A DNA stretch of 32,000 nt from Peptococcaceae bacterium BICA1-7 (GCA_000802095.1 JUEB01000024.1:188277-220276); one strand, 5' to 3'; numbered from the stretch's first letter, positions 4,489 to 30,458 are shown. The notes: a model not told the origin generated them from the letters alone. Numbers and translations: made by a program.

Positions 4489-4830
4489 GTGCATGAATTC
4501 TCCCTGGTAAGTGATCTTCTGGAAACAGTCATGAAGAGTGCTGAGGAAAATGGCATTAAGAGTGTTTCAAAGGTAAAATTAACTGTGGGAGAGTGTCATG
4601 GAGCTCTCCCGGAAGCCTTATCCTTTGCCTTTATGGCCTTGTCAGGCGACACTGTGTGCAGCGGCGCTGAATTAGACATTGATATTAAAAGTGGATTGCT
4701 GCTATGCACTGCGTGCGGCCACAGCTTCTCCTATGAAATACTACAGACTATGTGCCCTGAGTGCGGATCAGTATATTTGGACATTATCTCCGGAAGGGAA
4801 TTGCGGGTAGATTATTATGAGGGTGAATAA
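4489..4830 (+). CDS. hypA: Hydrogenase nickel incorporation protein HypA
   Basis: 113 aa. GTG start giving MHEFSL, with SD AAGGA 9 nt upstream. Two CxxC zinc motifs (CTACGH ... CPECG). Confidence 0.9.
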   Translation: MHEFSLVSDLLETVMKSAEENGIKSVSKVKLTVGECHGALPEALSFAFMALSGDTVCSGAELDIDIKSGLLLCTACGHSFSYEILQTMCPECGSVYLDIISGRELRVDYYEGE

Positions 4831-4842
4831 GGGGGTTATTTT

Positions 4843-5523
4843 TTGAAGGTAATTTTGGCCAGGGATTTGCTTGGCGTCAACACTGTCAAGGGAGAAAACA
4901 ACAGGGAGATTTTAGAAAAAAAAGGCCTTCTGACACTGAATATAATCAGCTCCCCAGGTGCGGGCAAGACAACCTTGCTGGAAGTTACCATGAAATCATT
5001 AAAGAATAAATATAATTTCGGGGTAATTGAGGGAGACCTGTACACCTCACGTGATGCCCTGCGTTTGGAGGAGCACTCCCATGCCATTGTGCAGATTAAT
5101 ACCTGCGGGATGTGCCACCTGAATGCGGATATGGTGGCCAGGGCTTTAAAGGATATGCCTCTTGACTCCCTGGATGTAATTATTATTGAAAATGTTGGGA
5201 ACCTGGTCTGCCCGGCTGCCTTTTATCTGGGCGAGACCTTCAAGGTGGCGGTGCTCAGTGTGCCGGAGGGCAGCGACAAGCCGGCCAAGTACCCTGAGCT
5301 GTTTAAAGAGGCCAGGGCGGTAATTATCAATAAGTCAGACTTATTGCCCTATACAGATTTTGATTTGCCCGGATGCGTAAAAGAGTTAAGGCAAATAAAC
5401 CCCAGAGCGGAAATACTGGTAGTCTCCGCCAGAACAGGTGAGGGCATGGATCAGTGGATCGGCTGGCTGGAGGTTAATGTTCAGCAAATTAAACAGTTGT
5501 CAACTAAAGAATGTCTCCAGTAA
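4843..5523 (+). CDS. hypB: Hydrogenase nickel-insertion GTPase HypB
   Basis: 226 aa. TTG start after SD AAGGGGG. P-loop SSPGAGKTTLLE, ENVGNLVCPA and NKSDL GTPase motifs. Confidence 0.9.
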   Translation: MKVILARDLLGVNTVKGENNREILEKKGLLTLNIISSPGAGKTTLLEVTMKSLKNKYNFGVIEGDLYTSRDALRLEEHSHAIVQINTCGMCHLNADMVARALKDMPLDSLDVIIIENVGNLVCPAAFYLGETFKVAVLSVPEGSDKPAKYPELFKEARAVIINKSDLLPYTDFDLPGCVKELRQINPRAEILVVSARTGEGMDQWIGWLEVNVQQIKQLSTKECLQ

Positions 5524-5537
5524 ACGAGGTGCTTTGA

Positions 5538-5768
5538 ATGTGTCTTGGAGTTCCCGGAAAAGTGGTGGAGATTAACACTACAGGGCAAAGGGCAGTGATA
5601 GAGACCATGGGGGTGAAGAGGCAGGTGGGCACCCAACTGGTGGAGGAGGTTCAGCCCGGGGACTATTTAATGGTACATGCCGGGTACGCCATAGAAAAGA
5701 TAAATACCGACCTGGCCCTGGAAATGATCCGCCTGTGGGAGGACATTCTTAAAAATGAAAATATTTGA
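5538..5768 (+). CDS. hypC: Hydrogenase assembly chaperone HypC/HupF
   Basis: 76 aa with the canonical N-terminus MCLGVPGKV. SD GAGGTG lies 6 nt upstream. Confidence 0.9.
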   Translation: MCLGVPGKVVEINTTGQRAVIETMGVKRQVGTQLVEEVQPGDYLMVHAGYAIEKINTDLALEMIRLWEDILKNENI

Positions 5769-6873
5769 AAGGTTTAATGACCCGGATCTGGGAAAGAGGA
5801 TGGTTTCCAGGGTCAGGTCTCTGGCACTAAAGGCAGCTGATCGGCTGGGCCGGCCAATTATGCTGATGGAGGTCTGCGGCACCCATACTGCCGCCATATC
5901 AAAAAGTGGTATCAGGATGCTGCTTGCTGATCTGCTGGAATTGCGGAGCGGGCCGGGCTGCCCTGTATGCGTTACGGCCCCGGGTGATATAGAAGCGGCT
6001 GTAAATCTTTCCCGCCTTCCGGGGGTAACCGTGGCCACCTTTGGAGATATGATCAGGGTTCCTGGAATAAGCTCTTCCCTGGAGCAGGAAAGGGCCCGGG
6101 GATCGGAAGTCAATATTTTTTATTCTCCCGGGGATGCAGTGGATTATGCCCGGCTTCATCCGGAAAAAGAAGTGGTATTTATAGGGGTGGGTTTTGAAAC
6201 CACTGCCCCCCTGGTGGCACTAAGTGTTGATGAAGCACGGGAATCGGGGATAAAAAACTACAGTGTGCTGTCACTTCATAAAATAGTTCCCCCGGTGCTG
6301 AGTAATCTTCTGTCCACCGGAGAGCTCAGTGTGGATGGCCTTATTTTACCCGGACATGTCTGTGTGATTACCGGACGCAGGGCTCTTGACTTTGTTGCCG
6401 GAAAATATAACGTGCCGGCGGCCATTGCCGGTTTTGAGGCCATGGATATTCTGGCTGCAGTCCACTCCCTGCTGGAGGCCATATTGGAGGGTCGCGCGGC
6501 TGTTGTTAACTGCTACCCCAGGGTGGTTAAAGAGAATGGGAATATACAGGCCCAAAAAATTATAGAAAAAATTTTCACCCCGGTGGATGCCCACTGGCGG
6601 GGATTTGGTGAAATAGCCGGCAGCGGTCTGGCCTTCAGGGAAGAGTATAGTGACTATGACGCCTCTTACCGGTATGCCATCGGGACTTCCCTGTCCACCC
6701 CCAAAACAGCCTGCCGCTGCGGAGAACTTTTAAAGGGAAAAATATATCCCGGTGACTGTGGTCTTTTTGCCCGCTCCTGCACCCCTGCCACTCCGGTGGG
6801 GCCCTGCATGGTGTCTTCCGAAGGGACGTGCTCGGTCTACTACCGATATCACCGGACGGCAATCATCCCATAA
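5755..6873 (+). CDS. hypD: Hydrogenase formation protein HypD
   Basis: 372 aa, overlapping hypC by 14 nt. Motifs CGTHT, GPGCPVCV, FETTAP, PGHV and C-terminal Cys motifs. Confidence 0.9.
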   Translation: MKIFERFNDPDLGKRMVSRVRSLALKAADRLGRPIMLMEVCGTHTAAISKSGIRMLLADLLELRSGPGCPVCVTAPGDIEAAVNLSRLPGVTVATFGDMIRVPGISSSLEQERARGSEVNIFYSPGDAVDYARLHPEKEVVFIGVGFETTAPLVALSVDEARESGIKNYSVLSLHKIVPPVLSNLLSTGELSVDGLILPGHVCVITGRRALDFVAGKYNVPAAIAGFEAMDILAAVHSLLEAILEGRAAVVNCYPRVVKENGNIQAQKIIEKIFTPVDAHWRGFGEIAGSGLAFREEYSDYDASYRYAIGTSLSTPKTACRCGELLKGKIYPGDCGLFARSCTPATPVGPCMVSSEGTCSVYYRYHRTAIIP

Positions 6874-6878
6874 TTATC

Positions 6879-7013
6879 GGGGACATTCCTCGGCCAGAAT
6901 ACCATGCTTAAAAGAGGAGGTATCCCCATACCATGTTTGGTGTGTCCCCGCCATCCTGATCGGGGACATTCCTCCAACCCAAAAGTGAAGCTCCAAAGAG
7001 GAGGTGTGTCCCC
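6879..7013 (-). repeat. Two hairpin repeat units (reverse orientation) filling the hypD-hypE gap
   Basis: The reverse complement reads AAGGAATGGGGACACACCTCC-N24-GGAGGAATGTCCCCGATCAGGATGGC-GGGGACACACC-aaacatggtat-GGGGATACCTCC-N24-GAGGAATGTCCCCGAT. Arm positions are 7000-7013 / 6962-6975 and 6916-6927 / 6879-6891. Confidence 0.85.
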
Positions 7014-7019
7014 ATTCCT

Positions 7020-8024
7020 TTGGACAAAAGGATACTGCTGTCCCATGGCGCCGGAGGCCAATTAACCAGACAGCTGGTGGATGACATTTTTGTTAAGTAT
7101 TTTAATAACGAGGCCTTAAAACCACTGTCCGACGCCGCCGTAATTGAACTGCCGGGGTCCAGGCTGGCCTTCACCACTGATTCTTTTGTGGTGAGACCAC
7201 TTTTTTTCCCGGGCGGTGATATAGGCAAGCTGGCGGTTTGCGGCACTGTAAATGATTTGGCTGTTAGTGGCGCCAGGCCTTTATTTTTGACGGCCTCCTT
7301 CATTATTGAAGAGGGCCTGTCTTTAAGCGTACTGGATAAGGTTGCCCGCTCCCTTGGGGAGACCTGCCGGACGGCCGGGGTTAGAGTAGTGGCCGGAGAC
7401 ACCAAGGTGGTGGAAAAAGGTCACGGGGATTTGATTTTTATCAATACGGCAGGGATAGGGGTAATACCGGAGGGCCTGGATTTGGGGCAGCATAGTATAG
7501 CCCCGGGAGATGTGGTCATCGTCAACGGTCCGATGGGGAACCATGGGCTGGCAGTGTTGCTGGAAAGGGGTAATCTGGGGCTGGACTCCGGGGTGATCAG
7601 CGACTGTGCCCCCCTGAATGGATTAATTGAGCAAATACTGGGTAAGGCCCCCGGTGTTAAAATGATGCGGGATCTCACCCGGGGTGGGCTGGCTACAGCG
7701 GTTAAAGAGATAGCTCTGGGGGCGGGTGTGGATATATGGCTGGAGGAGCCCTCCATTCCGGTGGATGATCAGGTAAGGGGGGCACTGGAAATATTGGGAC
7801 TTGATCCTCTCTATATGGCTAATGAGGGGAAATTTGTCATTTTTGCCGCCCCGGAGGATGCCCCGGAGGTGATGAGAATACTTGCCAGTGACCCTCTGGG
7901 TGAAAAAGCTGCCATTATTGGCCAGGTGGCCCCGGGCAAGGGCAGTGTTTTATTAAAAACAATGCTGGGCGGGACAAAAATACTGGATTTGCTGGCCGGC
8001 GATCCTTTGCCGAGAATCTGTTGA
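7020..8024 (+). CDS. hypE: Hydrogenase maturation carbamoyl dehydratase HypE
   Basis: 334 aa with a TTG start. N-terminal ILLSHGAGG, AIR-synthase-like fold motifs, and the obligatory C-terminal PRIC. Confidence 0.9.
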   Translation: MDKRILLSHGAGGQLTRQLVDDIFVKYFNNEALKPLSDAAVIELPGSRLAFTTDSFVVRPLFFPGGDIGKLAVCGTVNDLAVSGARPLFLTASFIIEEGLSLSVLDKVARSLGETCRTAGVRVVAGDTKVVEKGHGDLIFINTAGIGVIPEGLDLGQHSIAPGDVVIVNGPMGNHGLAVLLERGNLGLDSGVISDCAPLNGLIEQILGKAPGVKMMRDLTRGGLATAVKEIALGAGVDIWLEEPSIPVDDQVRGALEILGLDPLYMANEGKFVIFAAPEDAPEVMRILASDPLGEKAAIIGQVAPGKGSVLLKTMLGGTKILDLLAGDPLPRIC

Positions 8025-8026
8025 AT

Positions 8027-8103
8027 GGGGACACACCGAAAGCGGAAAGGGGACACACCGAAAGCGGAAAGAGGACACACCGAAAGCGGAAAGGGGACAC
8101 ACC
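8027..8103 (+). repeat. 22-bp tandem repeat, 3.5 copies (GGGGACACACCGAAAGCGGAAA)
   Basis: Copies at 8027-8048 and 8049-8070 are identical. The copy at 8071-8092 has one change (GAGG). A partial copy occupies 8093-8103. The array starts 3 nt after the hypE stop. Confidence 0.95.
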
Positions 8104-8298
8104 TGCTGAAGCTGAGGTATTCCTTTGAGGACAGGAATGTCCCCGATTATATGGCGTGACACACTAAACATGGTAAGGGGATACAACTCCTCTTTAGAGT
8201 TTAGCTTCAGGGCCGGAGGAATGTCCCCGATCGGGATGGCTGGGATACACCGAACAGGATCGAACAGTGATTGCTTTGGGTGTTGGAGGAATGTCTCT
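8093..8298 (+). repeat. Three chained hairpin repeat units (third degenerate) upstream of hypF
   Basis: Unit 1: GGGGACACACCTGC (8093-8106), N24, ACAGGAATGTCCCC (8131-8144). Unit 2: GGGGATACAACTCC (8177-8190), N24, GGAGGAATGTCCCC (8215-8228), then the linker GATCGGGATGGC. Unit 3: TGGGATACACC (8241-8251) ... GGAGGAATGTCTC (8285-8297). Confidence 0.85.
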
Positions 8299-8316
8299 GG
8301 TTAAGGAGGGGTATGC

Positions 8317-10722
8317 GTGGGGGAGTGCAGGAGCTGCCGGATTATATATACCGGTACCGTCCAGGGTGTGGGCTTTCGCCCCTATGTGTACAATCTGGCC
8401 AGGTCCCTGGGCCTTAGCGGAGCGGTGGGCAACACCGGGGAAGGTGTGCTGGTGGAGTTGGAAGGGGAGGCTGAAAGGGTAAATAAATTCATCCGTGAGA
8501 TGGAATTCAATCATCCGGCTCTGGCCCGGATTAATAAGTTCGATATAATTCCTGCCCCCCAAAGGGGCTTTAAGGGATTCACAATAATGCCCAGTGAAGG
8601 TTTACCCAAAGGAGTTTCGGTGGTGCCGCCGGATGCGGCCCTCTGTTCCCAGTGCCGGGAGGAGACACTTTCCCGCCGGGACCGGCGCTACCTTTACCCC
8701 TTTACCAACTGCACCAACTGCGGGCCCAGGTTTACCATATCTGCCAGGCTGCCCTATGACCGGGTGAATACAACCATGGAGGTTTTCTCCATGTGCCCGG
8801 AATGTGCACTGGAATACAATAATCCTCAGGATCGCAGGTATCATGCCCAGCCGGTGGCCTGCCCGGTTTGCGGGCCTCAGGTATGGCTCACCGACGGCCT
8901 GGGGAATCGCCTGGAGGGCCTCTGGGCCAGTGAGTGCGGGAGATTGCTTAACGAAGGAGCTATACTGGCGGTGAAGGGGCTGGGGGGATTCCACCTGGTG
9001 TGTGATGCCTTCCAGGGGGAAGCAATTATTAAATTACGAAAAAAAAAGAGACGGCCCGCCAAGCCTCTGGCGGTGATGTGCCGGGATATGGACACTGTAA
9101 GAGAGCACTGCATGGTTACTCCCCGGGAGGAAGAATTATTGCAATCACACCATGCTCCCATTGTATTGCTTTCCAGGAACGGCAGGAACAGCCTGCCGGG
9201 AGAGCTGGCCCCGGGGATGGACACCCTGGGTGTAATGCTTCCTTATACCCCGATGCATCTGGTCTTATTGAACAGCTCAGCTCCTGTTCTGGTCATGACC
9301 AGCGGTAACAGCAGCGGTTTGCCCCTGGTTATTGATAATCAGAGGGCATATGCGGAACTTGGCGGAATTGCTGATTTCTTCCTTATGCATAACCGTGAAA
9401 TATTGAATCGCTGTGATGACTCAGTGGTGGCTGTTCATTCGGGAGGGGAACATTTTTTCCGGCGTTCCCGGGGTTACGTGCCGACACCCGTGGAGGTGCC
9501 CTTCAGGGAGGGACCGGTGGTGCTGGGGAGCGGTGGGGAGATGAAAAATACCTTTTGCATTTTAAAAGATGGAAATGCCTATTTAAGCCAGTATATTGGG
9601 GATATTTCACTGCTGGAGGGGCAGGAGGCATATATAAGTTCTTTTGAAAATTACTGCCGCCTTTTGGGTATAAACCCTGAAGTGGTGGCTCTGGATGCCC
9701 ACCCTGATTACCATGTGGCCGGATTAACCTCCTCTGTGCAGGGCCGGCGGTTTAACGTGCAGCATCATCATGCTCATATGGCGGCCTGTATGGCGGAAAA
9801 TGGTATTGACAGGCCGGTAATAGGGCTAATCCTGGATGGTACTGGATATGGTCTGGATGGGAATATATGGGGTTTTGAGGTTTTAACCGGTGACTATGTT
9901 AATTTTACCAGGGCTTCTCATTTAGACTACCTGCCACTGCCAGGAGGAGAAAGGGCTGTAAAAAACCCCTGGGTATGCGCGGCAGCCACCTTAATCCATT
10001 TTCTGGGGGACAGTGGATATCAGTCTGCCCGGTCTCTTTTTCCTGATAAGTCACCTGAAATAGCAACTATTAAAAAGATGATGAAAGAGAATATAAACTG
10101 CCCCCCGGCCTCCAGCTGTGGGCGGCTATTTGACTCAGTGGCCGCTATGCTGGGCATTTGTATGGTGAATACCTATGATGGCCAGGCAGCCATTGAGCTG
10201 GGCGATATGGTCAATAAGGAATGGGGACACACCATCAGCGGAAAGGGGACACACCTCTATAGGAAGCCTGGCTCTGGGGTCGGAGGAATGTCCCCGATTG
10301 GAAATGGCTCTGGGGTCGGAGGAATGTCCCCAATCGGTGAAGGACTGGCTATAAATCCTTACCGTTATACAATTAACGGGGATGTTATCGATCCGGCGTG
10401 TATGTTCGAGGCCATTTTAAAAGATTTGCAGTCAGGCATACCGGTTAGTGCAATTGCCCGCCGTTTTCATGATACGGTGGCGGCTATGGCGGTGGAGGGG
10501 GCGGTTAAGGCCAGAAAGGAAAAAGTAATAAACAGTGTGGTATTAAGTGGGGGCTGCTGGCACAATAAATACCTTTTTGAAACTACACTCCAACTACTGC
10601 AAAGTAAGGGATTTGATGTCCACTATCACCGCCTTGTTCCCCCGGGTGATGGGGGAATATCGCTGGGGCAGGCGGTAGTGGGCTATAAGAGATGGAAGAA
10701 TTGCAGTTCAACTGTTATGTGA
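8317..10722 (+). CDS. hypF: Carbamoyltransferase HypF (carries an in-frame repeat-derived insertion)
   Basis: 801 aa. GTG start 7 nt after SD AAGGAGG. Acylphosphatase motif VQGVGFRP, four CxxC zinc-finger motifs, YrdC-like LAVKGLGGFHL, and a Kae1-like C-terminal domain ending PPGDGGISLGQ. Confidence 0.9.
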   Translation: MGECRSCRIIYTGTVQGVGFRPYVYNLARSLGLSGAVGNTGEGVLVELEGEAERVNKFIREMEFNHPALARINKFDIIPAPQRGFKGFTIMPSEGLPKGVSVVPPDAALCSQCREETLSRRDRRYLYPFTNCTNCGPRFTISARLPYDRVNTTMEVFSMCPECALEYNNPQDRRYHAQPVACPVCGPQVWLTDGLGNRLEGLWASECGRLLNEGAILAVKGLGGFHLVCDAFQGEAIIKLRKKKRRPAKPLAVMCRDMDTVREHCMVTPREEELLQSHHAPIVLLSRNGRNSLPGELAPGMDTLGVMLPYTPMHLVLLNSSAPVLVMTSGNSSGLPLVIDNQRAYAELGGIADFFLMHNREILNRCDDSVVAVHSGGEHFFRRSRGYVPTPVEVPFREGPVVLGSGGEMKNTFCILKDGNAYLSQYIGDISLLEGQEAYISSFENYCRLLGINPEVVALDAHPDYHVAGLTSSVQGRRFNVQHHHAHMAACMAENGIDRPVIGLILDGTGYGLDGNIWGFEVLTGDYVNFTRASHLDYLPLPGGERAVKNPWVCAAATLIHFLGDSGYQSARSLFPDKSPEIATIKKMMKENINCPPASSCGRLFDSVAAMLGICMVNTYDGQAAIELGDMVNKEWGHTISGKGTHLYRKPGSGVGGMSPIGNGSGVGGMSPIGEGLAINPYRYTINGDVIDPACMFEAILKDLQSGIPVSAIARRFHDTVAAMAVEGAVKARKEKVINSVVLSGGCWHNKYLFETTLQLLQSKGFDVHYHRLVPPGDGGISLGQAVVGYKRWKNCSSTVM
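10206..10340 (+). repeat. Composite copy of the hairpin repeat family inside the hypF reading frame
   Basis: TCAATAAGGAATGGGGACACACC (10211-10233) is identical to 26839-26861. A 22-bp-spaced second GGGGACACACC sits at 10245-10255. GGAGGAATGTCCCC is at 10282-10295. A 36-bp tandem duplication covers 10269-10304 and 10305-10340. The outer boundaries are approximate. Confidence 0.85.
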
Positions 10723-24621: not shown

Positions 24622-24632
24622 GAAAGATGTAA

Positions 24633-24690
24633 GGGGAGTCTGACTTCGAAGTCAGAGGAATGTCCCCGATCGGGATAATGTCCCTGATAG
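24633..24690 (+). repeat. Compact variant of the hairpin repeat family in the sigma-factor leader
   Basis: GGGGA (24633-24637) and TCCCC (24663-24667) enclose a perfect 18-bp palindrome tctgacttcgaagtcaga (24639-24656). GAGGAATGTCCCCGATCGGGAT (24655-24676) is followed by a half-copy AATGTCCCTGATAG (24677-24690). Confidence 0.8.
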
Positions 24691-25262: not shown

Positions 25263-25282
25263 AAAAAGGAGGGATGAGATTA

Positions 25283-26845
25283 ATGAATAATCCCGAAAGC
25301 AGACTTTCCGAATATATTGATGAATTGAATGCGGAACAAGAGCCGGAAAAACACCGGGGAGCCGCCGATACTCCGGAATTGGAAAAACTTTTAACAACGG
25401 TCAGAGCGGTCCGTAGTTTAAGAGAACCGGAACTACCCGATCCCGGATACCCTCAAAGACTGGCCAAAGCAGCAGCTCAAAGCCTCCACCAGCCGGCTGC
25501 GCCAAAACCCGGATTCGGTAGCCGGGTATATGAAATGGTGGCCGGGCGTTTTCGCCGACGGTGGGTTTTACCGCCTGTGGCGGCTTTGGTGGCCGGGTTG
25601 CTTTTATTTGCAGTATTGACCAGCTGGAACGGCTTGTTTAACCGTGATGTGGTATACGCCATGGAAAAAGCGGTCTCCAAATTGTCAAATTATCATGGTG
25701 TACTTGAGATGCGCTCAAAAAACGCAGCCGGAGAGGAGTGGCTGATCCGCCGGGTGGAGCTTTGGTCCGATGGAGAAAAGTATGCCGTGCGGCAGGACGA
25801 CGGCACTCTGACAGTTAACAACGGCGAGAGGAAGTGGCAGGTCCGTGCTCAAAGCAAGGAAGTGGCCTTGCTGCCTCTGGCGCCTGACCCGGCCCGGAAT
25901 GGTTTTGACCTGCGGGATGAGGCTAAACTGGCTAATCAATACCCACACACCGTTGTGGGCCCGGATATAATTGCCGGCCGCGAGACTTTAAAGCTTGAGA
26001 TTTCGCCACCGGGAGGCCTGGCCTACTATTTATGGGTGGATACAGAAACCAATCTGCCCATTCAACTGCAAACAGCGATGCAGAATTCGCTGCAGACCAC
26101 CTATACTTTTGTAAACTTTGCACCAAATACCCTGATTGACCCCATTATATTCACTTACCAGACGCCTGAAGGCTATAAAGTGGTAGAAAAGGATCCGGGG
26201 CAATTGGTGGCCACGGTGGAGGAAGCGGCTGCCATCAGCGGATTAACGCCGCTGCTCCCAAAAGAAGCACCAGCCCGCATCTTTGCTTTCAAAGACCGTA
26301 TCGTTTTTGATTATGGTGATGCTACAATTGTTGAAGCCGCCGCCAGGGGGCCCTTTAATCCCGCTCCCAATGCCGCCCTTGGCACTGCTGCAGGTGGCCC
26401 GCTGGAAGTGTGGTGGGAACGATTGCGTTGGCGGCAGGAGGGGCTTGAAATTCAGGCCGAAGGGGCGCGGCGGGCGGAATTGGCCCGTCAGATTGCTGCC
26501 GACTTTGCTCTCCCGGACTCCGGTAAAAAACTGGTCAAGGCCCAGGTCCAGGTGCCGGTGGATATGGAGATTGCCGGAGCAAACCAGCAGCAGGTGGACC
26601 GGGGAAGCAGCCCCTGGCATCTTGATCCTCTGCAGGTGGCGCTTACTTTTGTCAACTTAAAGGTATCTCCGGAAGGAATAGTAGGCGAGCCGAAGATACC
26701 AATGTCCTATTATAAGCTGGCAGCGAACAACGGCGCCGAGGCAGTGGTGGAGGTGTCCGGAGGCCCGGTTAAAAAGGTCTACCTGCAGCGGCTTGTCCGG
26801 CAGGACGAGACAGGCATCTGGTCGGTTGTCGGGTACGATCAATAA
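25283..26845 (+). CDS. Putative anti-sigma factor: single-pass membrane protein with LolA/RseB-like extracytoplasmic domain
   Basis: Adjacent to the ECF sigma gene. A short cytoplasmic N-domain, one TM helix (WVLPPVAALVAGLLLFAVLTSW), then a large external domain. ATG at 25283 is better spaced from GGAGG than ATG at 25274. The function is inferred from context. Confidence 0.6.
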   Translation: MNNPESRLSEYIDELNAEQEPEKHRGAADTPELEKLLTTVRAVRSLREPELPDPGYPQRLAKAAAQSLHQPAAPKPGFGSRVYEMVAGRFRRRWVLPPVAALVAGLLLFAVLTSWNGLFNRDVVYAMEKAVSKLSNYHGVLEMRSKNAAGEEWLIRRVELWSDGEKYAVRQDDGTLTVNNGERKWQVRAQSKEVALLPLAPDPARNGFDLRDEAKLANQYPHTVVGPDIIAGRETLKLEISPPGGLAYYLWVDTETNLPIQLQTAMQNSLQTTYTFVNFAPNTLIDPIIFTYQTPEGYKVVEKDPGQLVATVEEAAAISGLTPLLPKEAPARIFAFKDRIVFDYGDATIVEAAARGPFNPAPNAALGTAAGGPLEVWWERLRWRQEGLEIQAEGARRAELARQIAADFALPDSGKKLVKAQVQVPVDMEIAGANQQQVDRGSSPWHLDPLQVALTFVNLKVSPEGIVGEPKIPMSYYKLAANNGAEAVVEVSGGPVKKVYLQRLVRQDETGIWSVVGYDQ

Positions 26846-26914
26846 GGAATGGGGACACACCTCCCTGGCACGATTGGCTCTGTGGGTCGGAGGAATGTCC
26901 CCGATCGGGATGGC
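26834..26914 (+). repeat. Hairpin repeat unit overlapping the 3' end of the anti-sigma gene
   Basis: TCAATAAGGAATGGGGACACACC (26839-26861), CTCC plus an N24 spacer, GGAGGAATGTCCCC (26889-26902), then GATCGGGATGGC (26903-26914). Confidence 0.85.
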
Positions 26915-26935
26915 TTTTGGCCTCCCCCAATCCCC

Positions 26936-26963
26936 AAACCAGGGTTTTTACAAACCCTGGTTT
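26936..26963. terminator. Bidirectional intrinsic terminator
   Basis: Perfect 12-bp stem aaaccagggttt / aaaccctggttt with loop ttac, between convergent stops at 26845 (+) and 26963 (-). Confidence 0.7.
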
Positions 26964-29593
26964 TAATTCAATAGCTTTTCTACATACCCTTCCGTTCCGT
27001 TTACACGGATTCGCTCCCCGTCTTTGATCAGCCTGGTGGCGTTTTCCACGCTTACCACCGCCGGAAGACCGTATTCGCGGGCAATGACGGCTCCATGGGT
27101 CATAAGCCCGCCCACCTCGGTCACCAGGCCCTTGACGGATACAAAAAGCGGCGTCCAACTGGGGTCAGTGAATGTGGTGACCAAAATATCGCCATCCTCT
27201 ATGTTGGCATCAGACATCTTTAAAACCACCCGTGCCCGCCCTTCGATAACGCCGGTTGAAACGGGTATACCGGCCAGAGCGCCCTGGGGGATATTCCCTG
27301 TGTTGTATTGTCCGGATATGACCTCGCCCTCGGATGTCATCACCCTCGGCGGCGTCAGTTTCTCATAAACCTCGTACTCCTCTTTTCTCCTGGTTAGGGT
27401 GCTGTAATCCAGCCTGCCTGTGCGAACGGCGTCCCGGAGTTCATCAAAGGAGAGATAATAGATGTCCTCCTTCTCCTGCAGGACTCCCTTTTGCACCAGC
27501 ACGGCGGCCTCCTTCAGCAGTGCCTGCTTATAAATGTAGTAACGTTGTATGAAGGCATATTTGGGATATTCCCGATAGCCGATAAAATTACGCATAACGC
27601 TGATCATTTTCTTTGTCTTTTTGGCCTTTTGCCTGCCACCGGGCAATTGCTCCAGGCGGCTTAAAAGGTCTTGCTCCTTCTGCTCTGCTTCCATTCGCCC
27701 CTGCTCAAATTTGACGTTCTTGGCATTGGGTTTAAAATTTTTGATGTTGCTTAAAATCACGGGGATGAGCGAGGTGGGCTTTTCGCTCCAGCGGGGCCTG
27801 GTGATGTCGATCTCGCCGGAACAGCGCATGCCGTATTTTTCAAGGTACGACCGTAGAGATTGGCTGACAGAGTCTCCGCCCTCCAGTTTGGCCAGGTCAT
27901 CAAAAAAGGTTTCATCACTGGCATGACCAAAATATTCAATCACCGCCGGATATTGCCGGACCACATCCGAGACATCCAGGAGCGCAAGCCCCATTTCGGA
28001 GGTGACATTATTGTCTACCGATTGGGAGAGAGTGTCGGCTGCACTCTTTTCGCCCAGCCACTTTTCCATTTTCTTATTGATCCAATTAGCTGCGTAGACC
28101 CCCACCATGATCGCTCCCAGGCTTCGTGAATCATACATTAATTCCTTTAACGATTTATAGTCCTGTAAAATAAAGTCAAACAGCTCATCGCCTGATACTT
28201 GTGTGATCCTTTGCCGCAGATCTCTTATGGACGCCTGGTTTTGGGAGATGAGACTTTGAATGAGCGCCACGTCGTTTTCGCGGTAGATCTTTATGGACTG
28301 AAGGGGAAGTGCCCAGGATAGACCCTCTCTGCCCAGGCTGATGGATCTCTTTCCGTGCGGCAGTGATTTCATAAAAGCTTTTCGCTTCATTAAACTTAAG
28401 ATAGCGTTTTGCATCAGAGGGTCGTTCCTGCCGATGGTGCTGATCACTATCTTTCGCCCAATGGTCGAGGCCAGGTCGTGCGTCAGATCTAAGAAAAGCC
28501 TTCCACCGGCTTTACGTATTGGAAAATCACCAGATAAAAACTGGAGGAAGGACATGCCCAGAGGCTTAATGGCATCCGTCATCATCTGCTGATGGCCGAA
28601 CGACATATAGACACGGTTCTGATCATCGTTTACGTCCATTATTGGATATAAGGTGGTGATGGGGCGGCTCTGAAGGATGAATAACATTTCCTCGCATATG
28701 CACCATTCAATATCCTGGGGGCGGCCAAAATACTTCTCGATCTTTCTTCCCGTGCTCTCAAGCTGCAAAATCTGCTGGTCTGTCAGGGCTTGCATATTTT
28801 GCTGCTGTGGCTCAATCTCCCGCTCCTCCGTGCCGCCTTCTTCCAGTGCATGGATGGCCAGCTTCTTGGAGGATATCTTCTTATCAATAATCCTTCCCTC
28901 CCGCACCTTATAGATATCAGCATTCACCAGGCCTGAGACCAGCGCCTCGCCAAGCCCAAAGCTGGCGTCGATGGAGAGCACCTTCCTGTTGGAGGTGACG
29001 GGATCGGCCGTAAACATAATCCCAGCTGTCTGCGGGAAAACCATCCTCTGTATGACCACAGACAGGTAGACTTTGCGGTGGCCGAAGCCGTTTTGCATAC
29101 GGTAGATCACCGCCCGGTCGGTAAACAGCGAGGCCCAGCACTTGCTGACATGCTGCAGGATGGAATACTTTCCTTTAATGTTCAAATAGGTATCCTGCTG
29201 GCCCGCAAAGGAGGCCAGAGGCAGATCCTCAGCCGTGGCGCTGGAGCGCACGGCATAGGCGTTCTCCCCGCCAAGCTTTAAAAGGTAGCTGGTAATCTCT
29301 TCCTCTATGTCCCTGGCAATCTTCGCCCCTTCGATGATCCCACGGATCTTTCCGCTAATTTCACCTATTTTTTCCCTTTCGTTCACCTTTAAAAGGGACA
29401 GATGATCCAGCAGCGCGTTAAATTCTCTGTTATCTTCAATAGTTCTTTTATAGGCAGCGGTGGTGACACAAAAGCCCTCCGGCACCCGTACTTCCTCAAT
29501 CCTTGACAGTTCCCCCAGGTTTAAGCCTTTGCCACCGACGACCGCAAGCTTTGTTTTGTCTATCTCCTGAAAACCAAGCACATATGAATTCAT
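26963..29593 (-). CDS. PEP-utilizing enzyme, PpsA / rifampicin-phosphotransferase (RPH)-like architecture
   Basis: 876 aa from the ATG at 29593; the track ORF extends to 29659 and would overlap the nitroreductase. N-terminal ATP-grasp (VGGKGLNLGE, AVRSSATAEDLP, FTADP) and a C-terminal swivel phosphohistidine domain (GGLMTHGAVIAREYGLPAVV). No C-terminal PEP/pyruvate TIM-barrel domain follows. Confidence 0.85.
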   Translation of the reverse strand: MNSYVLGFQEIDKTKLAVVGGKGLNLGELSRIEEVRVPEGFCVTTAAYKRTIEDNREFNALLDHLSLLKVNEREKIGEISGKIRGIIEGAKIARDIEEEITSYLLKLGGENAYAVRSSATAEDLPLASFAGQQDTYLNIKGKYSILQHVSKCWASLFTDRAVIYRMQNGFGHRKVYLSVVIQRMVFPQTAGIMFTADPVTSNRKVLSIDASFGLGEALVSGLVNADIYKVREGRIIDKKISSKKLAIHALEEGGTEEREIEPQQQNMQALTDQQILQLESTGRKIEKYFGRPQDIEWCICEEMLFILQSRPITTLYPIMDVNDDQNRVYMSFGHQQMMTDAIKPLGMSFLQFLSGDFPIRKAGGRLFLDLTHDLASTIGRKIVISTIGRNDPLMQNAILSLMKRKAFMKSLPHGKRSISLGREGLSWALPLQSIKIYRENDVALIQSLISQNQASIRDLRQRITQVSGDELFDFILQDYKSLKELMYDSRSLGAIMVGVYAANWINKKMEKWLGEKSAADTLSQSVDNNVTSEMGLALLDVSDVVRQYPAVIEYFGHASDETFFDDLAKLEGGDSVSQSLRSYLEKYGMRCSGEIDITRPRWSEKPTSLIPVILSNIKNFKPNAKNVKFEQGRMEAEQKEQDLLSRLEQLPGGRQKAKKTKKMISVMRNFIGYREYPKYAFIQRYYIYKQALLKEAAVLVQKGVLQEKEDIYYLSFDELRDAVRTGRLDYSTLTRRKEEYEVYEKLTPPRVMTSEGEVISGQYNTGNIPQGALAGIPVSTGVIEGRARVVLKMSDANIEDGDILVTTFTDPSWTPLFVSVKGLVTEVGGLMTHGAVIAREYGLPAVVSVENATRLIKDGERIRVNGTEGYVEKLLN

Positions 29594-29618
29594 AAGGACA
29601 TCCCTTCTTAAGAAGAAT

Positions 29619-30458
29619 TCAAACCAAAAATTGCCATACGGAGCGTCCCTGTTCCTCATTTAATAAAATATTGCAGTCTATATTCTTCATCATCATTCCC
29701 AGCCAAAAGTGACAGGCGCATACCCCAATGTCAACATTGGGATGTTCCCACTTGATGTGTTTATAGCCGACGGGCATTGCTATGGAAATTGTTTTAAAGT
29801 CAGATGAAACAGTGAAGCGCCAGAACTGGCTATTGGCGGCAGAAGGAGCTTTCCGGGCAAGGTCAAACGCGTACAAAATCTCTGGAGGAAGGCTTTCCTC
29901 GCTTATGCCCTCCTCCAAAAATGCGCCCACAGGCTTGCGCCTGTAGCTAAAAAATGATGTCTGCACCCTATCAGCCAGCCTAACGCCCTCATTCTGCCAG
30001 TATCCGACCGGTGTGATGCAAATAGCCCGTTGGCCCTGCACCACGCCCTTTCCGTAGCCCCATTTGGGCATTGGCAAGGCAGCGTTTGCCCCCAGATGCG
30101 GCATAATGCGCTCCAATTCAGCCAGAGTATAATGGCCATACCAGCAGGTAGCAAGTCCCAGGCTGGTGGCGTATAGGATCAGAATTTCCCCCACAAATCC
30201 GGCCGCTGACACGGAGCAGACATCCGTATCCGATAGAAAAGCCGCCCCATCAGGCGGTGCCGGAAAAACAGTATAGAGTTTCCTGTCGGGTCTGGCCTTG
30301 AACATGCGTATGGAAACAGTGTGTTCAAAAGGCACTTGAATATTGCCAATGAAGCTTTGCAGCAAAGTCATTTTCGATTCCTCAACGGGACGCAGCTCAT
30401 AAGCCCGCGTGGATCTGCGGGCGTTTACTGCGGCTTCCCAATCAATGCCTTTAATCAC
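29619..30458 (-). CDS. Nitroreductase-family flavoprotein
   Basis: 279 aa. GTG start 5 nt after AGGTG. N-terminal RRSTRAY motif and the overall nitroreductase-like pattern. The substrate is unknown. Confidence 0.7.
   Translation of the reverse strand: MIKGIDWEAAVNARRSTRAYELRPVEESKMTLLQSFIGNIQVPFEHTVSIRMFKARPDRKLYTVFPAPPDGAAFLSDTDVCSVSAAGFVGEILILYATSLGLATCWYGHYTLAELERIMPHLGANAALPMPKWGYGKGVVQGQRAICITPVGYWQNEGVRLADRVQTSFFSYRRKPVGAFLEEGISEESLPPEILYAFDLARKAPSAANSQFWRFTVSSDFKTISIAMPVGYKHIKWEHPNVDIGVCACHFWLGMMMKNIDCNILLNEEQGRSVWQFLV

Follow-up and report, generated by a model that had tools for sequence, protein, structure and literature searches.

A family of short, hairpin-forming DNA repeats built on GGGGACA and TGTCCCC arms fills both long spacers of the hyp operon, and interrupts one hyp gene in frame, in Peptococcaceae bacterium BICA1-7. 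The family was studied in a 32,000-nucleotide (nt) stretch of this genome (GCA_000802095.1, JUEB01000024.1:188277-220276), hereafter the window, and in loci from other genomes; the window sequence belongs to JGI sample 3300002838. The family is real and apparently unnamed, and it probably represents a selfish, non-autonomous repeat family, similar to repetitive extragenic palindromic (REP) sequences and Rickettsia palindromic elements (RPEs), that proliferates in the chromosomes of Desulfotomaculia/Peptococcaceae and Syntrophomonas. The evidence for mobility is entirely comparative, gain and loss having been deduced from orthologous sites. Arrays occur in either orientation, and most lie in intergenic spacers, often right after a gene; the most interesting property of the family is its intragenic location.

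Within the window, eight exact left arms (GGGGACACACC) and eight exact right arms (GGAATGTCCCC) were counted, compared with none of either in 462 kb of unrelated HypE loci. (A metagenome scan with HypE for close relatives of the hyp operon gave, among the matches listed, only sequences of at most 59% identity, and these loci were used as a negative control only.) The right-arm 14-mer GGAGGAATGTCCCC is present 11 times at up to two mismatches, versus 0.45 expected, a count reached in none of 100 shuffles, and GGGGAYAC is present 12 times versus 2.3 expected. A covariance model constructed from 86 copies (other genomes plus the window) recovered six full units at 29-66 bits and discriminated well between strands (e.g., 65.9 versus 15.9 bits), while the compact (24633-24667) and degenerate (8241-8298) units are recognisable by eye and match this long-unit model weakly (E ~4-9). 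The copies, with covariance-model scores in brackets, and one empty site are as follows.

6876-7021, minus strand: array filling the whole hypD-hypE spacer, ending 2 nt past the hypD stop codon and overlapping the first base of the hypE TTG start; in minus-strand order, left end AAAGGAAT, left (L) arm 7013-7003, right (R) arm 6972-6962, linker GATCAGGATGGC, L arm 6949-6939, AAACATGGTAT, variant left (L') arm GGGGATAC 6927-6920, R arm 6889-6879, GAT
6962-7013, minus strand: full 52-nt unit (63.3 bits, E 3e-10)
6879-6927, minus strand: 49-nt unit with left arm GGGGATAC and inner-stem variant CGAGG (29 bits, E 6e-4)
8023-8103, plus strand: tandem of the 22-bp left-arm module GAAAGGGGACACACCGAAAGCG, 3.7 copies (Tandem Repeats Finder score 148, 94% matches), beginning at the hypE stop (TGA 8022-8024)
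8093-8144, plus strand: full 52-nt unit of the CCTGCTGAAG...ACAGG subfamily (56.7 bits)
8155-8228, plus strand: degenerate L arm CGTGACACACT, AAACATGGTAA, then unit 8177-8228 (45.6 bits); the module is homologous to minus-strand module 6876-6949
8229-8298, plus strand: linker GATCGGGATGGC, then a degenerate unit (TGGGATACACC ... GGAGGAATGTCTCT; weak match, E 8.6), ending 14 nt ahead of the hypF ribosome-binding site
10213-10337, plus strand: L-L-R-R array in the hypF open reading frame (ORF), in frame (unit 10245-10295, 65.9 bits)
24630-24688, plus strand: compact degenerate unit TAAGGGGAGTCTGACTTCGAAGTCAGAGGAATGTCCCC, followed by GATCGGGAT and a second R arm, now decayed, AATGTCCCTGAT, upstream of an extracytoplasmic function (ECF) sigma factor gene
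26840-26914, plus strand: single 52-nt unit with both ends (left CAATAAGGAAT, right GATCGGGATGGC; unit 26851-26902, 63.7 bits)
28683-28698, minus strand: empty insertion site, loop DIEWCICEEMLFILQSRPIT, in a gene (26963-29659, minus strand) for a phosphoenolpyruvate (PEP)-synthase/rifampicin-phosphotransferase-like protein

The anatomy of the unit was surveyed by using the arms as anchors in loci retrieved from other genomes (labelled L with a number; about 1 Mb in all), which yielded more than 120 units. Each runs in the order left end WTAAGGAAW, GGGGACA, CA, CCTCC, a loop of 3 nt or ~24 nt, GGAGG, AA, TGTCCCC, right end GAT, and the resulting sizes are bimodal, at 31 nt (GGGGACACACCTCC-TTC-GGAGGAATGTCCCC) and 51-52 nt. 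Both size classes fold into a 7-bp stem, a 2x2 internal loop (CA opposite AA), and a 5-bp stem, with mean minimum free energies (MFE) of -18 and -24 kcal/mol, respectively, and z-scores of about -4 to -5. Of the cells in the 86-sequence alignment, 98.2% are paired; sliding the partner lowers this to 42-57%, and the covariation score of 0.091 (0.053 in shuffles) was reached in none of 500 shuffles. The inner pair has changed from C-G to G-C in 16 of the 86 copies (CCTCC/GGAGG to CCTGC/GCAGG); as these amount to essentially one subfamily-level event, they provide one or two independent confirmations, not sixteen, and the covariation signal comes mainly from one subfamily. The CA/AA internal loop, by comparison, has not been turned into pairs in any copy. 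Taken together, the pairing, covariation, and compensatory change in aligned copies indicate that the hairpin is under selection.

The segments GGGGACA...TGTCCCC constitute a perfect 7-bp terminal inverted repeat, matching at 12 of 14 positions when extended. Outside the outermost arms, conservation reaches 10 nt to the left (WTAAGGAAW) and 3 nt to the right (GAT), and TAA stands at position -8 in 36% of outermost left ends. Several loci (L025, L029, L034, L055, L063, and L080) share a recurring extension after the right arm, G(C/T)ATAGACGGCGGAAT(T/C/A)C..., whose partial complementarity to sequence 5' of the unit suggests larger composite palindromes.

Arrays have a simple grammar, left arms coming before right arms (L^m R^n), and units are also chained head to tail. 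Among 123 arrays, the arrangements included LR (52), LRR (13), LLRR (12), and LRLR (10), and extended up to L3R8; left arms are spaced at 22 nt and right arms at 14-17 or 33-37 nt. Near-identical tandem copies, such as the 3.7 copies of 22 bp at 8023-8103 and six 36-nt copies in L046, show that arrays grow by local duplication. Nested self-insertion as the sole origin of L-L-R-R arrays is ruled out by these tandem copies and by unbalanced arrays (LLLLR, LRR, L3R8). Runs of a heptamer (CCAATTC / CTAATTC) lie beside arrays in L042, L104, and L202 (120-165), and a degenerate trace of them, CCTCCCCCAATCCCCAAACC, is found at 26918-26940 of the window, after the copy at 26840-26914; they could belong to a second repeat family or be an additional module. 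Just 3' of that same copy, a terminator-like hairpin with T-runs on both sides (AAACCAGGGTTTTTACAAACCCTGGTTTT, 26936-26964) separates convergent genes.

A scan of species-representative genomes with a single 17-mer gave at least 114 blocks and placed true units in at least 35 species-level genomes of Desulfotomaculia/Peptococcaceae and Syntrophomonas; blocks from unrelated phyla proved to be lone chance matches lacking a left arm. Hosts include Pelotomaculum propionicicum, P. terephthalicicum, Candidatus Syntrophopropionicum, Desulfotomaculum, Desulfosporosinus, Desulfocucumis, Peptococcaceae BRH_c4a and c4b, Syntrophomonas, and several Bacillota metagenome-assembled genomes. Arms are identical from genus to genus, and loops from one genome resemble each other more closely than loops from different genomes do (0.536 versus 0.480; 7 of 1000 permutations). 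BLAST searches of plasmid and phage collections gave no match, and a scan of viral contigs gave three chance 17-mers, none with a left arm. Rfam contained no match to the whole window and, for 6800-8400, no relevant one even with E values up to 10, and a literature search on the arm sequences returned unrelated primer matches only.

Because the window and most loci come from metagenome-assembled genomes, and several carrier contigs bear implausible taxonomic labels, an assembly or binning artefact has to be considered. Its probability is next to nil: isolate genomes carry the family (the complete genome of Desulfoscipio gibsoniae, L204, along with Pelotomaculum terephthalicicum and P. propionicicum), which refutes it, copies are embedded in intact conserved ORFs, and the loci were recovered independently in JGI, NCBI, ENA, and Logan assemblies. 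The contigs with unexpected labels comprise Actinomycetota (FK_Sedi_B_Bin.80, with ~30 blocks; L009-L104, JAMCVT), Puia sp., Desulfobacterales, and Clostridium thermobutyricum (others: L096, L008, L114). The Desulfobacterales-labelled copies are identical to those of Bacillota Ch29, and the bins or labels of all these contigs are probably wrong. In several genomes (L013, L023, L028, L051, L070), a unit occupies a conserved position, with the flank CCAYGGGGACGGTTCCATCG...CCCGATTAAGG upstream and TCTAYYGCTGCGCTTCGG downstream. At L023, the one locus with an identified neighbour gene, the unit lies ~180 nt upstream of alaS, possibly in its leader.

Much of this agrees with a first-pass annotation made from the window sequence. 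Its coordinates coincide with the six full units recovered by the covariance model and with the two degenerate or compact units seen by eye, and the 7-bp stem, 2-nt mismatch, and 5-bp stem that it described are kept in the alignment; its 23-24-nt spacer and its linker GATC(G/A)GGATGGC were also correctly identified. It had proposed that the idea would fail if the arms lost complementarity across copies or if further copies were lacking; pairing is retained, with one subfamily-level compensatory change, and copies abound elsewhere. Likewise, the sequence, which it did not recognise as a named family, has no counterpart in Rfam, the plasmid and phage collections, or the literature searched by sequence. 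Four features were overlooked: the location of the hypF copy inside the gene, the 22-bp left-arm tandem at 8023-8103, the extra left arm at 6939-6949, and the stop codon supplied by the copy at 26840.

Most of these copies lie in or between genes of a hyp operon, whose genes were delimited by a Pfam scan and gene calls and which is followed downstream by an Hdr/Mvh-type [NiFe]-hydrogenase cluster.

4489-4830: hypA
4843-5523: hypB
5538-5768: hypC
5755-6873: hypD
7020-8024: hypE (TTG start at 7020; TGA stop at 8022-8024)
8317-10722: hypF

The hypD-hypE and hypE-hypF gaps measure 146 and 292 nt, and the remaining hyp junctions are 12-14 nt or overlapping. Both long spacers consist of hairpin units from end to end. 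Comparison with the hyp operons of relatives, a check suggested by the first-pass annotation, revealed inserts in some and not in others, which bears out its claim that the units account for the two gaps: units occupy the hypD-hypE spacer of the window and of L203 but are missing from that of L119 (25 nt) and L120, and the hypE-hypF spacer of L120 is 89 nt long and free of elements.

Several further observations concern these junctions. Oppositely oriented arrays leave hypE flanked by an 85-nt inverted repeat (6934-7018 / 8172-8256, 81% complementary), across which recombination could invert or delete hypE. A purine-rich, Shine-Dalgarno-like run is kept a few nucleotides before the hypE start in L119 (GGGAGGAG) and L203 (GGGGGGGAG). 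A CACCTCC(T) within the left arm is similar to the anti-Shine-Dalgarno end of 16S rRNA. In L120 (4847-4900, Desulfotomaculum sp. BL5_bin.2), a degenerate compact unit lies in frame in the N-terminus of HypE (GAAAGGGGACACGATGCAATGTCCTC), and the protein is ~20 residues longer than its relatives. Elsewhere in the window, an 18-bp tandem repeat (1671-1715, 2.5 copies, CTTCCGGGGTTTCGGCAG) marks the 3' end of minus-strand ORF 1660-2994, which encodes a copper amine oxidase N-terminal domain / DUF6612 protein.

The first-pass annotation had suggested that the units could act as RNA hairpins that govern the stability or processing of mRNA segments. On this account, host selection would maintain them in hyp and other polycistronic mRNAs as exonuclease barriers, processing sites, couplers, or attenuators (through GGAGG-CCTCC pairing) that set relative cistron expression. 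The stability of the hairpins and their covariation fit this idea, as does the only Shine-Dalgarno-like sequence before hypE (GGAGGTG, 7000-7006), which lies within an element stem 15 nt ahead of the TTG at 7020. Many copies begin less than 20 nt past an upstream stop codon, and arrays in that position mostly share the direction of the gene (14 versus 5; Fisher p=0.01); REPs elsewhere do act as RNA elements (PMC3733652). Overall, however, copies have no preferred orientation relative to co-directional genes on either side (27 same, 29 opposite, p=0.89), and relatives with an empty spacer have kept the same operon. No U-tract follows the hairpin (the flank logo is GAT, then unconserved), the unpaired CA/AA loop lowers stability yet stays unrepaired, and in-frame copies lie in the coding regions of HypF, the PEP-synthase-like enzyme, StiP, and HypD. 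We therefore consider host-selected RNA elements a rather improbable explanation. The bias near stop codons is better read as survivorship under the selfish-repeat interpretation, insertion in the last codons being tolerated when the element brings a stop.

Some copies lie inside genes or at gene ends. The hypF copy (10213-10337) encodes NKEWGHTISGKGTHLYRKPGSGVGGMSPIGNGSGVGGMSPIG (NKEWGHT...GGMSPIG), at about positions 633-674 of HypF, and adds some 43 residues. At the same loop, L203 carries a long unit, L119 a compact unit, and L120 and L121 decayed remnants (AAGAAAGGGCAATGTTCCC), while L202 and distant HypF proteins have no element. In an AlphaFold model of HypF, residues 634-676 have a predicted local distance difference test (pLDDT) score of 25-27 and lie between a helix (623-630) and a strand (685-687) in a domain otherwise above 90; the underlying alignment contained just 14 sequences, and the N-terminal half was poorly modelled. 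The predicted structure is consistent with a disordered or flexible loop, low pLDDT alone being no proof of surface exposure or tolerance.

Other copies alter gene ends. In the copy at 26840, the TAA of the left end (26843-26845) is the stop codon of ORF 25274-26845, whose last codons have been replaced: the orthologue in L022 ends in ...GYDPRVS* and the window protein in ...GYDQ*. In L203 (4570-4660, Betzabe_MAG120), an extra unit in the 3' end of hypD lies 36 nt before the natural stop; the ORF ends at a TAG in the loop of the unit, truncating HypD, and the displaced original C-terminal codons can still be read downstream.

A further series comes from the PEP-synthase-like enzyme. The loop that is empty in the window holds one to three units in L027, L085, and L108, antisense, in frame, and within the PPDK_N domain, and it is filled in 15 of 116 close homologues, among them the enzyme of the cultured D. 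gibsoniae, with varying junctions and unit types. On a neighbour-joining tree of these 116 proteins, the filled state is scattered and requires at least 13 gain or loss changes (Fitch parsimony), a count contingent on this tree, whose proteins are closely related and in part paralogous. Two filled/empty pairs share 90% protein identity, and in one of them (L206/L207) the DNA flanks are ~96% identical.

Since the hypF copy is translated in frame, the family might instead be a coding repeat, that is, a peptide motif (GGMSPIG / EWGHT) whose intergenic copies are unannotated small genes or pseudogenes. Units are somewhat enriched in open frames (18% are open in all six, versus 5-7% of controls), and a strict design for openness in all six frames was rejected, the enrichment being merely modest. 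The reading differs from protein to protein: KEWGHT..GGMSP in HypF, RGHSS..EVCPH antisense in the PEP-synthase-like enzyme, and MGTHL..GMSP in StiP, which also carries in-frame copies. Since the frame and strand in which the element is read change between proteins, it is not a protein motif, and the coding explanation is effectively refuted. Furthermore, the majority of copies are intergenic, and none of the tandem periods (22, 35, 37, and 38 nt) is divisible by three. Peptide searches did not uncover a protein family: the 44-residue HypF insert had one weak match among 1.84 billion representatives, and a 256-residue concatenation of all six frames had none at E up to 1, although such short, biased peptides give these searches low power. 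A coding origin is thus barely credible. In L095 (1-2259), a hybrid histidine kinase (HisKA, HATPase_c, receiver) and an OmpR-type response regulator are separated by an L3R3 array in an open frame, reflecting either a gene fusion or ORF read-through of the spacer.

Insertion appears to leave no target duplication. The best flanking direct repeats are distributed as in mismatched controls, with no sign of a long duplication, and duplications of 2-5 bp show no excess at any of 256 boundary offsets. A 6-7-bp duplication considered for L206/L207 was rejected, as the putative copies and the empty site disagree at 3 of 14 positions despite the near-identity of the flanks. Ends of the Tn3 or Tn7 type, with multiple transposase-binding sites, were likewise rejected, given the lack of a 5-bp duplication and the inconsistent TG...CA termini.

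Four features together point to recognition of a folded single strand: duplication is absent, conservation of the flank is one-sided, the unpaired loop is invariant, and filled and empty sites are scattered. In the mechanism that we propose, a trans-acting, structure-specific enzyme would recognise this strand. Left-arm (22-nt) and right-arm modules are each amplified in tandem to give L^m R^n arrays, and in copies right after a gene the TAA of the left end often becomes the stop codon of that gene. Copies in coding regions survive where they leave the reading frame open and fall in an apparently tolerant surface loop. Any effects on RNA would be by-products: the hairpin may serve as a 3' end barrier and may sequester the GGAGG before hypE. 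The most likely kind of mobilising enzyme would be an HUH/Y1 protein (IS200/IS605 or RAYT-like) encoded elsewhere in the genome, an identification that we offer only tentatively.

Several points weigh against this interpretation. As the first-pass annotation had stated, the window has no transposase, none being present among its 20 large ORFs scanned against Pfam, and no mobility gene recurs beside copies in the ~1 Mb of loci, where ORF clusters comprised only housekeeping proteins (Hdr-like proteins, AlaRS, MnmA). A tblastn and motif search for IS200/RAYT proteins in 0.98 Mb of 8-kb blocks, with IS608 TnpA and E. coli RAYT queries, was negative, at low power. The GTAG/CGTC tags of RAYT-associated REPs (PMC3733652) are absent from the family, and the 27:29 orientation ratio, with gene strand as a proxy for replication, lacks the strand bias expected of a strict IS200/IS605-type element. 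The L203 hypD copy is flanked by a 15/16-bp direct duplication (AGTCTACTACCGCTA / AGTCTTCTACCGCTA), which is unfitting for a duplication-free mechanism; it is one of two outliers among 119 arrays, the other being L069, which has a 12-nt flanking repeat with one mismatch. Arms that are identical in genera whose proteins are 50-80% identical could also reflect host selection for function, and transposition itself has been deduced from comparisons only.

Another candidate explanation is a host DNA-binding protein (e.g., a nucleoid-associated protein, gyrase, or integration host factor (IHF)) that would bind the arms, with arrays kept for chromosome organisation. Gyrase and IHF are examples from E. 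coli BIMEs. The extremely conserved half-site GGGGACAYWCC, in tandem at 22 nt or about two helical turns, and the identity of the arms across genera are what a binding site would display. No link of the copies to regular spacing or domain structure is apparent, however; the compensatory change points to recognition of a folded single strand rather than a duplex, and intragenic in-frame copies and presence or absence between near-identical strains fit mobility better. Binding sites for a host protein are therefore a highly improbable explanation.

A narrower version of the mobile-repeat reading holds that insertion, and perhaps precise excision, is site-directed and duplication-free, its mechanism returning repeatedly to the same few nucleotides; we judge this unlikely. 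In the loop DIEWC[ ]FYIVQSRPIT of the 116 close homologues of the PEP-synthase-like enzyme, the element always has one orientation. In the two closest filled/empty pairs, the empty allele has A(A/G)AAGG right at the junction, and the never-filled allele of the window lacks it. With two pairs and one negative, this target motif is only a lead. If true, it would represent target-motif-guided, hairpin-dependent mobility in Bacillota, distinct from the GTAG-REP/RAYT system, with diversification of surface loops of conserved enzymes as a side effect.

Recognition of the family has practical consequences for annotation. It explains anomalously long hyp spacers, some shifted stop codons, and the ~15-50-residue extra segments in HypF and 'phosphoenolpyruvate synthase' proteins of Desulfotomaculia, cultured species included; gene callers, for their part, make spurious ORFs through the arrays (e.g., L053, L061, L078). 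The arms are a sharp clade marker that already flags mis-binned-looking contigs, and tandem half-site arrays are potential strain markers of the variable-number tandem repeat type. Filled and empty alleles at ~96% identical flanks offer a tractable system for studying movement and the effects of inserted loops. In-frame palindromic selfish DNA in conserved enzymes is best known from obligate intracellular Rickettsia; here, it occurs in free-living, slow-growing anaerobes of the subsurface, digesters, and sediment.

Comparison with known systems disposes of two simple candidates. The unit is not an intrinsic terminator, as no U-tract is present and the right flank is GAT followed by unconserved sequence. 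Nor is it a CRISPR: the only Rfam match, CRISPR-DR56, is sub-threshold (20.5 bits versus a gathering score of 35, E 0.59), the periods of 14-37 nt come without unique spacers, and the window has no cas genes.

[quoted passage not shown] They have target-site duplications, however, whereas this family has no detectable one of 2-5 bp or longer, with the single exception of the L203 hypD copy; they also have a parent insertion sequence with matching inverted repeats, and none was seen for this family in the ~1 Mb of loci. Mycobacterial MIRUs are tandemly variable short units in operon spacers whose ends overlap flanking stop and start codons; similarly, the array of the window touches the region of the hypD stop as well as the hypE start. 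Unlike the family, MIRUs lack a hairpin architecture, being direct tandem repeats, and their dispersal differs.

BIMEs are built of Y and Z REPs in alternating orientation. They share with the present family a mosaic of palindromic units with recurring linkers (here GATCGGGATGGC) and a location in intercistronic and 3' regions; by contrast, the family keeps one orientation within an array, with all left arms before right arms, is unrelated in sequence, and has intragenic in-frame copies. BOX elements of pneumococci are larger than the units described here. Like them, BOX elements (boxA-boxB(n)-boxC) are modular small repeats of Bacillota with an internal module of variable number, the ability to form stable structure, and neither coding capacity nor a known transposase (partly PMC10969869). 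Their sequences and hosts are unrelated to those of the family, in which both terminal half-sites are the amplified modules.

REPs and REPINs come closer. They are short imperfect palindromes (20-50 nt) with many dispersed copies, mostly just downstream of genes, and form hairpins with conserved unpaired positions; they insert without target duplication, and GTAG REPs can supply the stop codon of a flanking ORF with one end and have some copies inside genes (PMC3733652). The designation 'REP/BIME-like' in the first-pass annotation was thus a fair description of the anatomy; as a statement of membership it does not hold, given the missing GTAG/CGTC tag, the head-to-tail arrays, a location that is not strictly extragenic, and no RAYT in sight. 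REPs have a conserved GTAG or CGTC at one end (PMC3733652), and the flank logos of the family, WTAAGGAAW and GAT, contain no GTAG/CTAC or CGTC/GACG. A RAYT gene, which the repeats typically flank, was found neither in the window, nor beside copies, nor by the low-power tblastn/motif search of 0.98 Mb of 8-kb blocks. REPINs are inverted doublets, whereas the family forms head-to-tail arrays in a single orientation and amplifies its half-sites separately. The host phyla listed for GTAG repeats include Proteobacteria, Cyanobacteria, Chloroflexi, and PVC, with Firmicutes unmentioned in the text (PMC3733652), whereas the host clade of this family is Bacillota.

For the intragenic copies, RPEs provide the nearest parallel, being palindromic and in frame in unrelated functional genes (Ogata et al. 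2000, as summarised in PMC10969869). The copies in HypF, the PPDK_N-domain PEP-synthase-like enzyme, StiP, and the HypD C-terminus are similarly in frame in functional genes at apparently tolerated positions, and a transposase is known for neither family. RPEs differ in their length of ~100-150 bp, their CGTC tag (PMC3733652), and their obligate intracellular Rickettsia hosts; the present units are 31-52 nt long, lack CGTC, are mostly intergenic and modular, and reside in free-living anaerobic Bacillota, where the same protein loop has been filled or emptied many times. Because the defining tests of each named family failed, the repeats constitute a new family of a known kind and a member of none. 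By analogy, the family would work like REP/REPIN sequences and RPEs while being organised like BIME or BOX mosaics.

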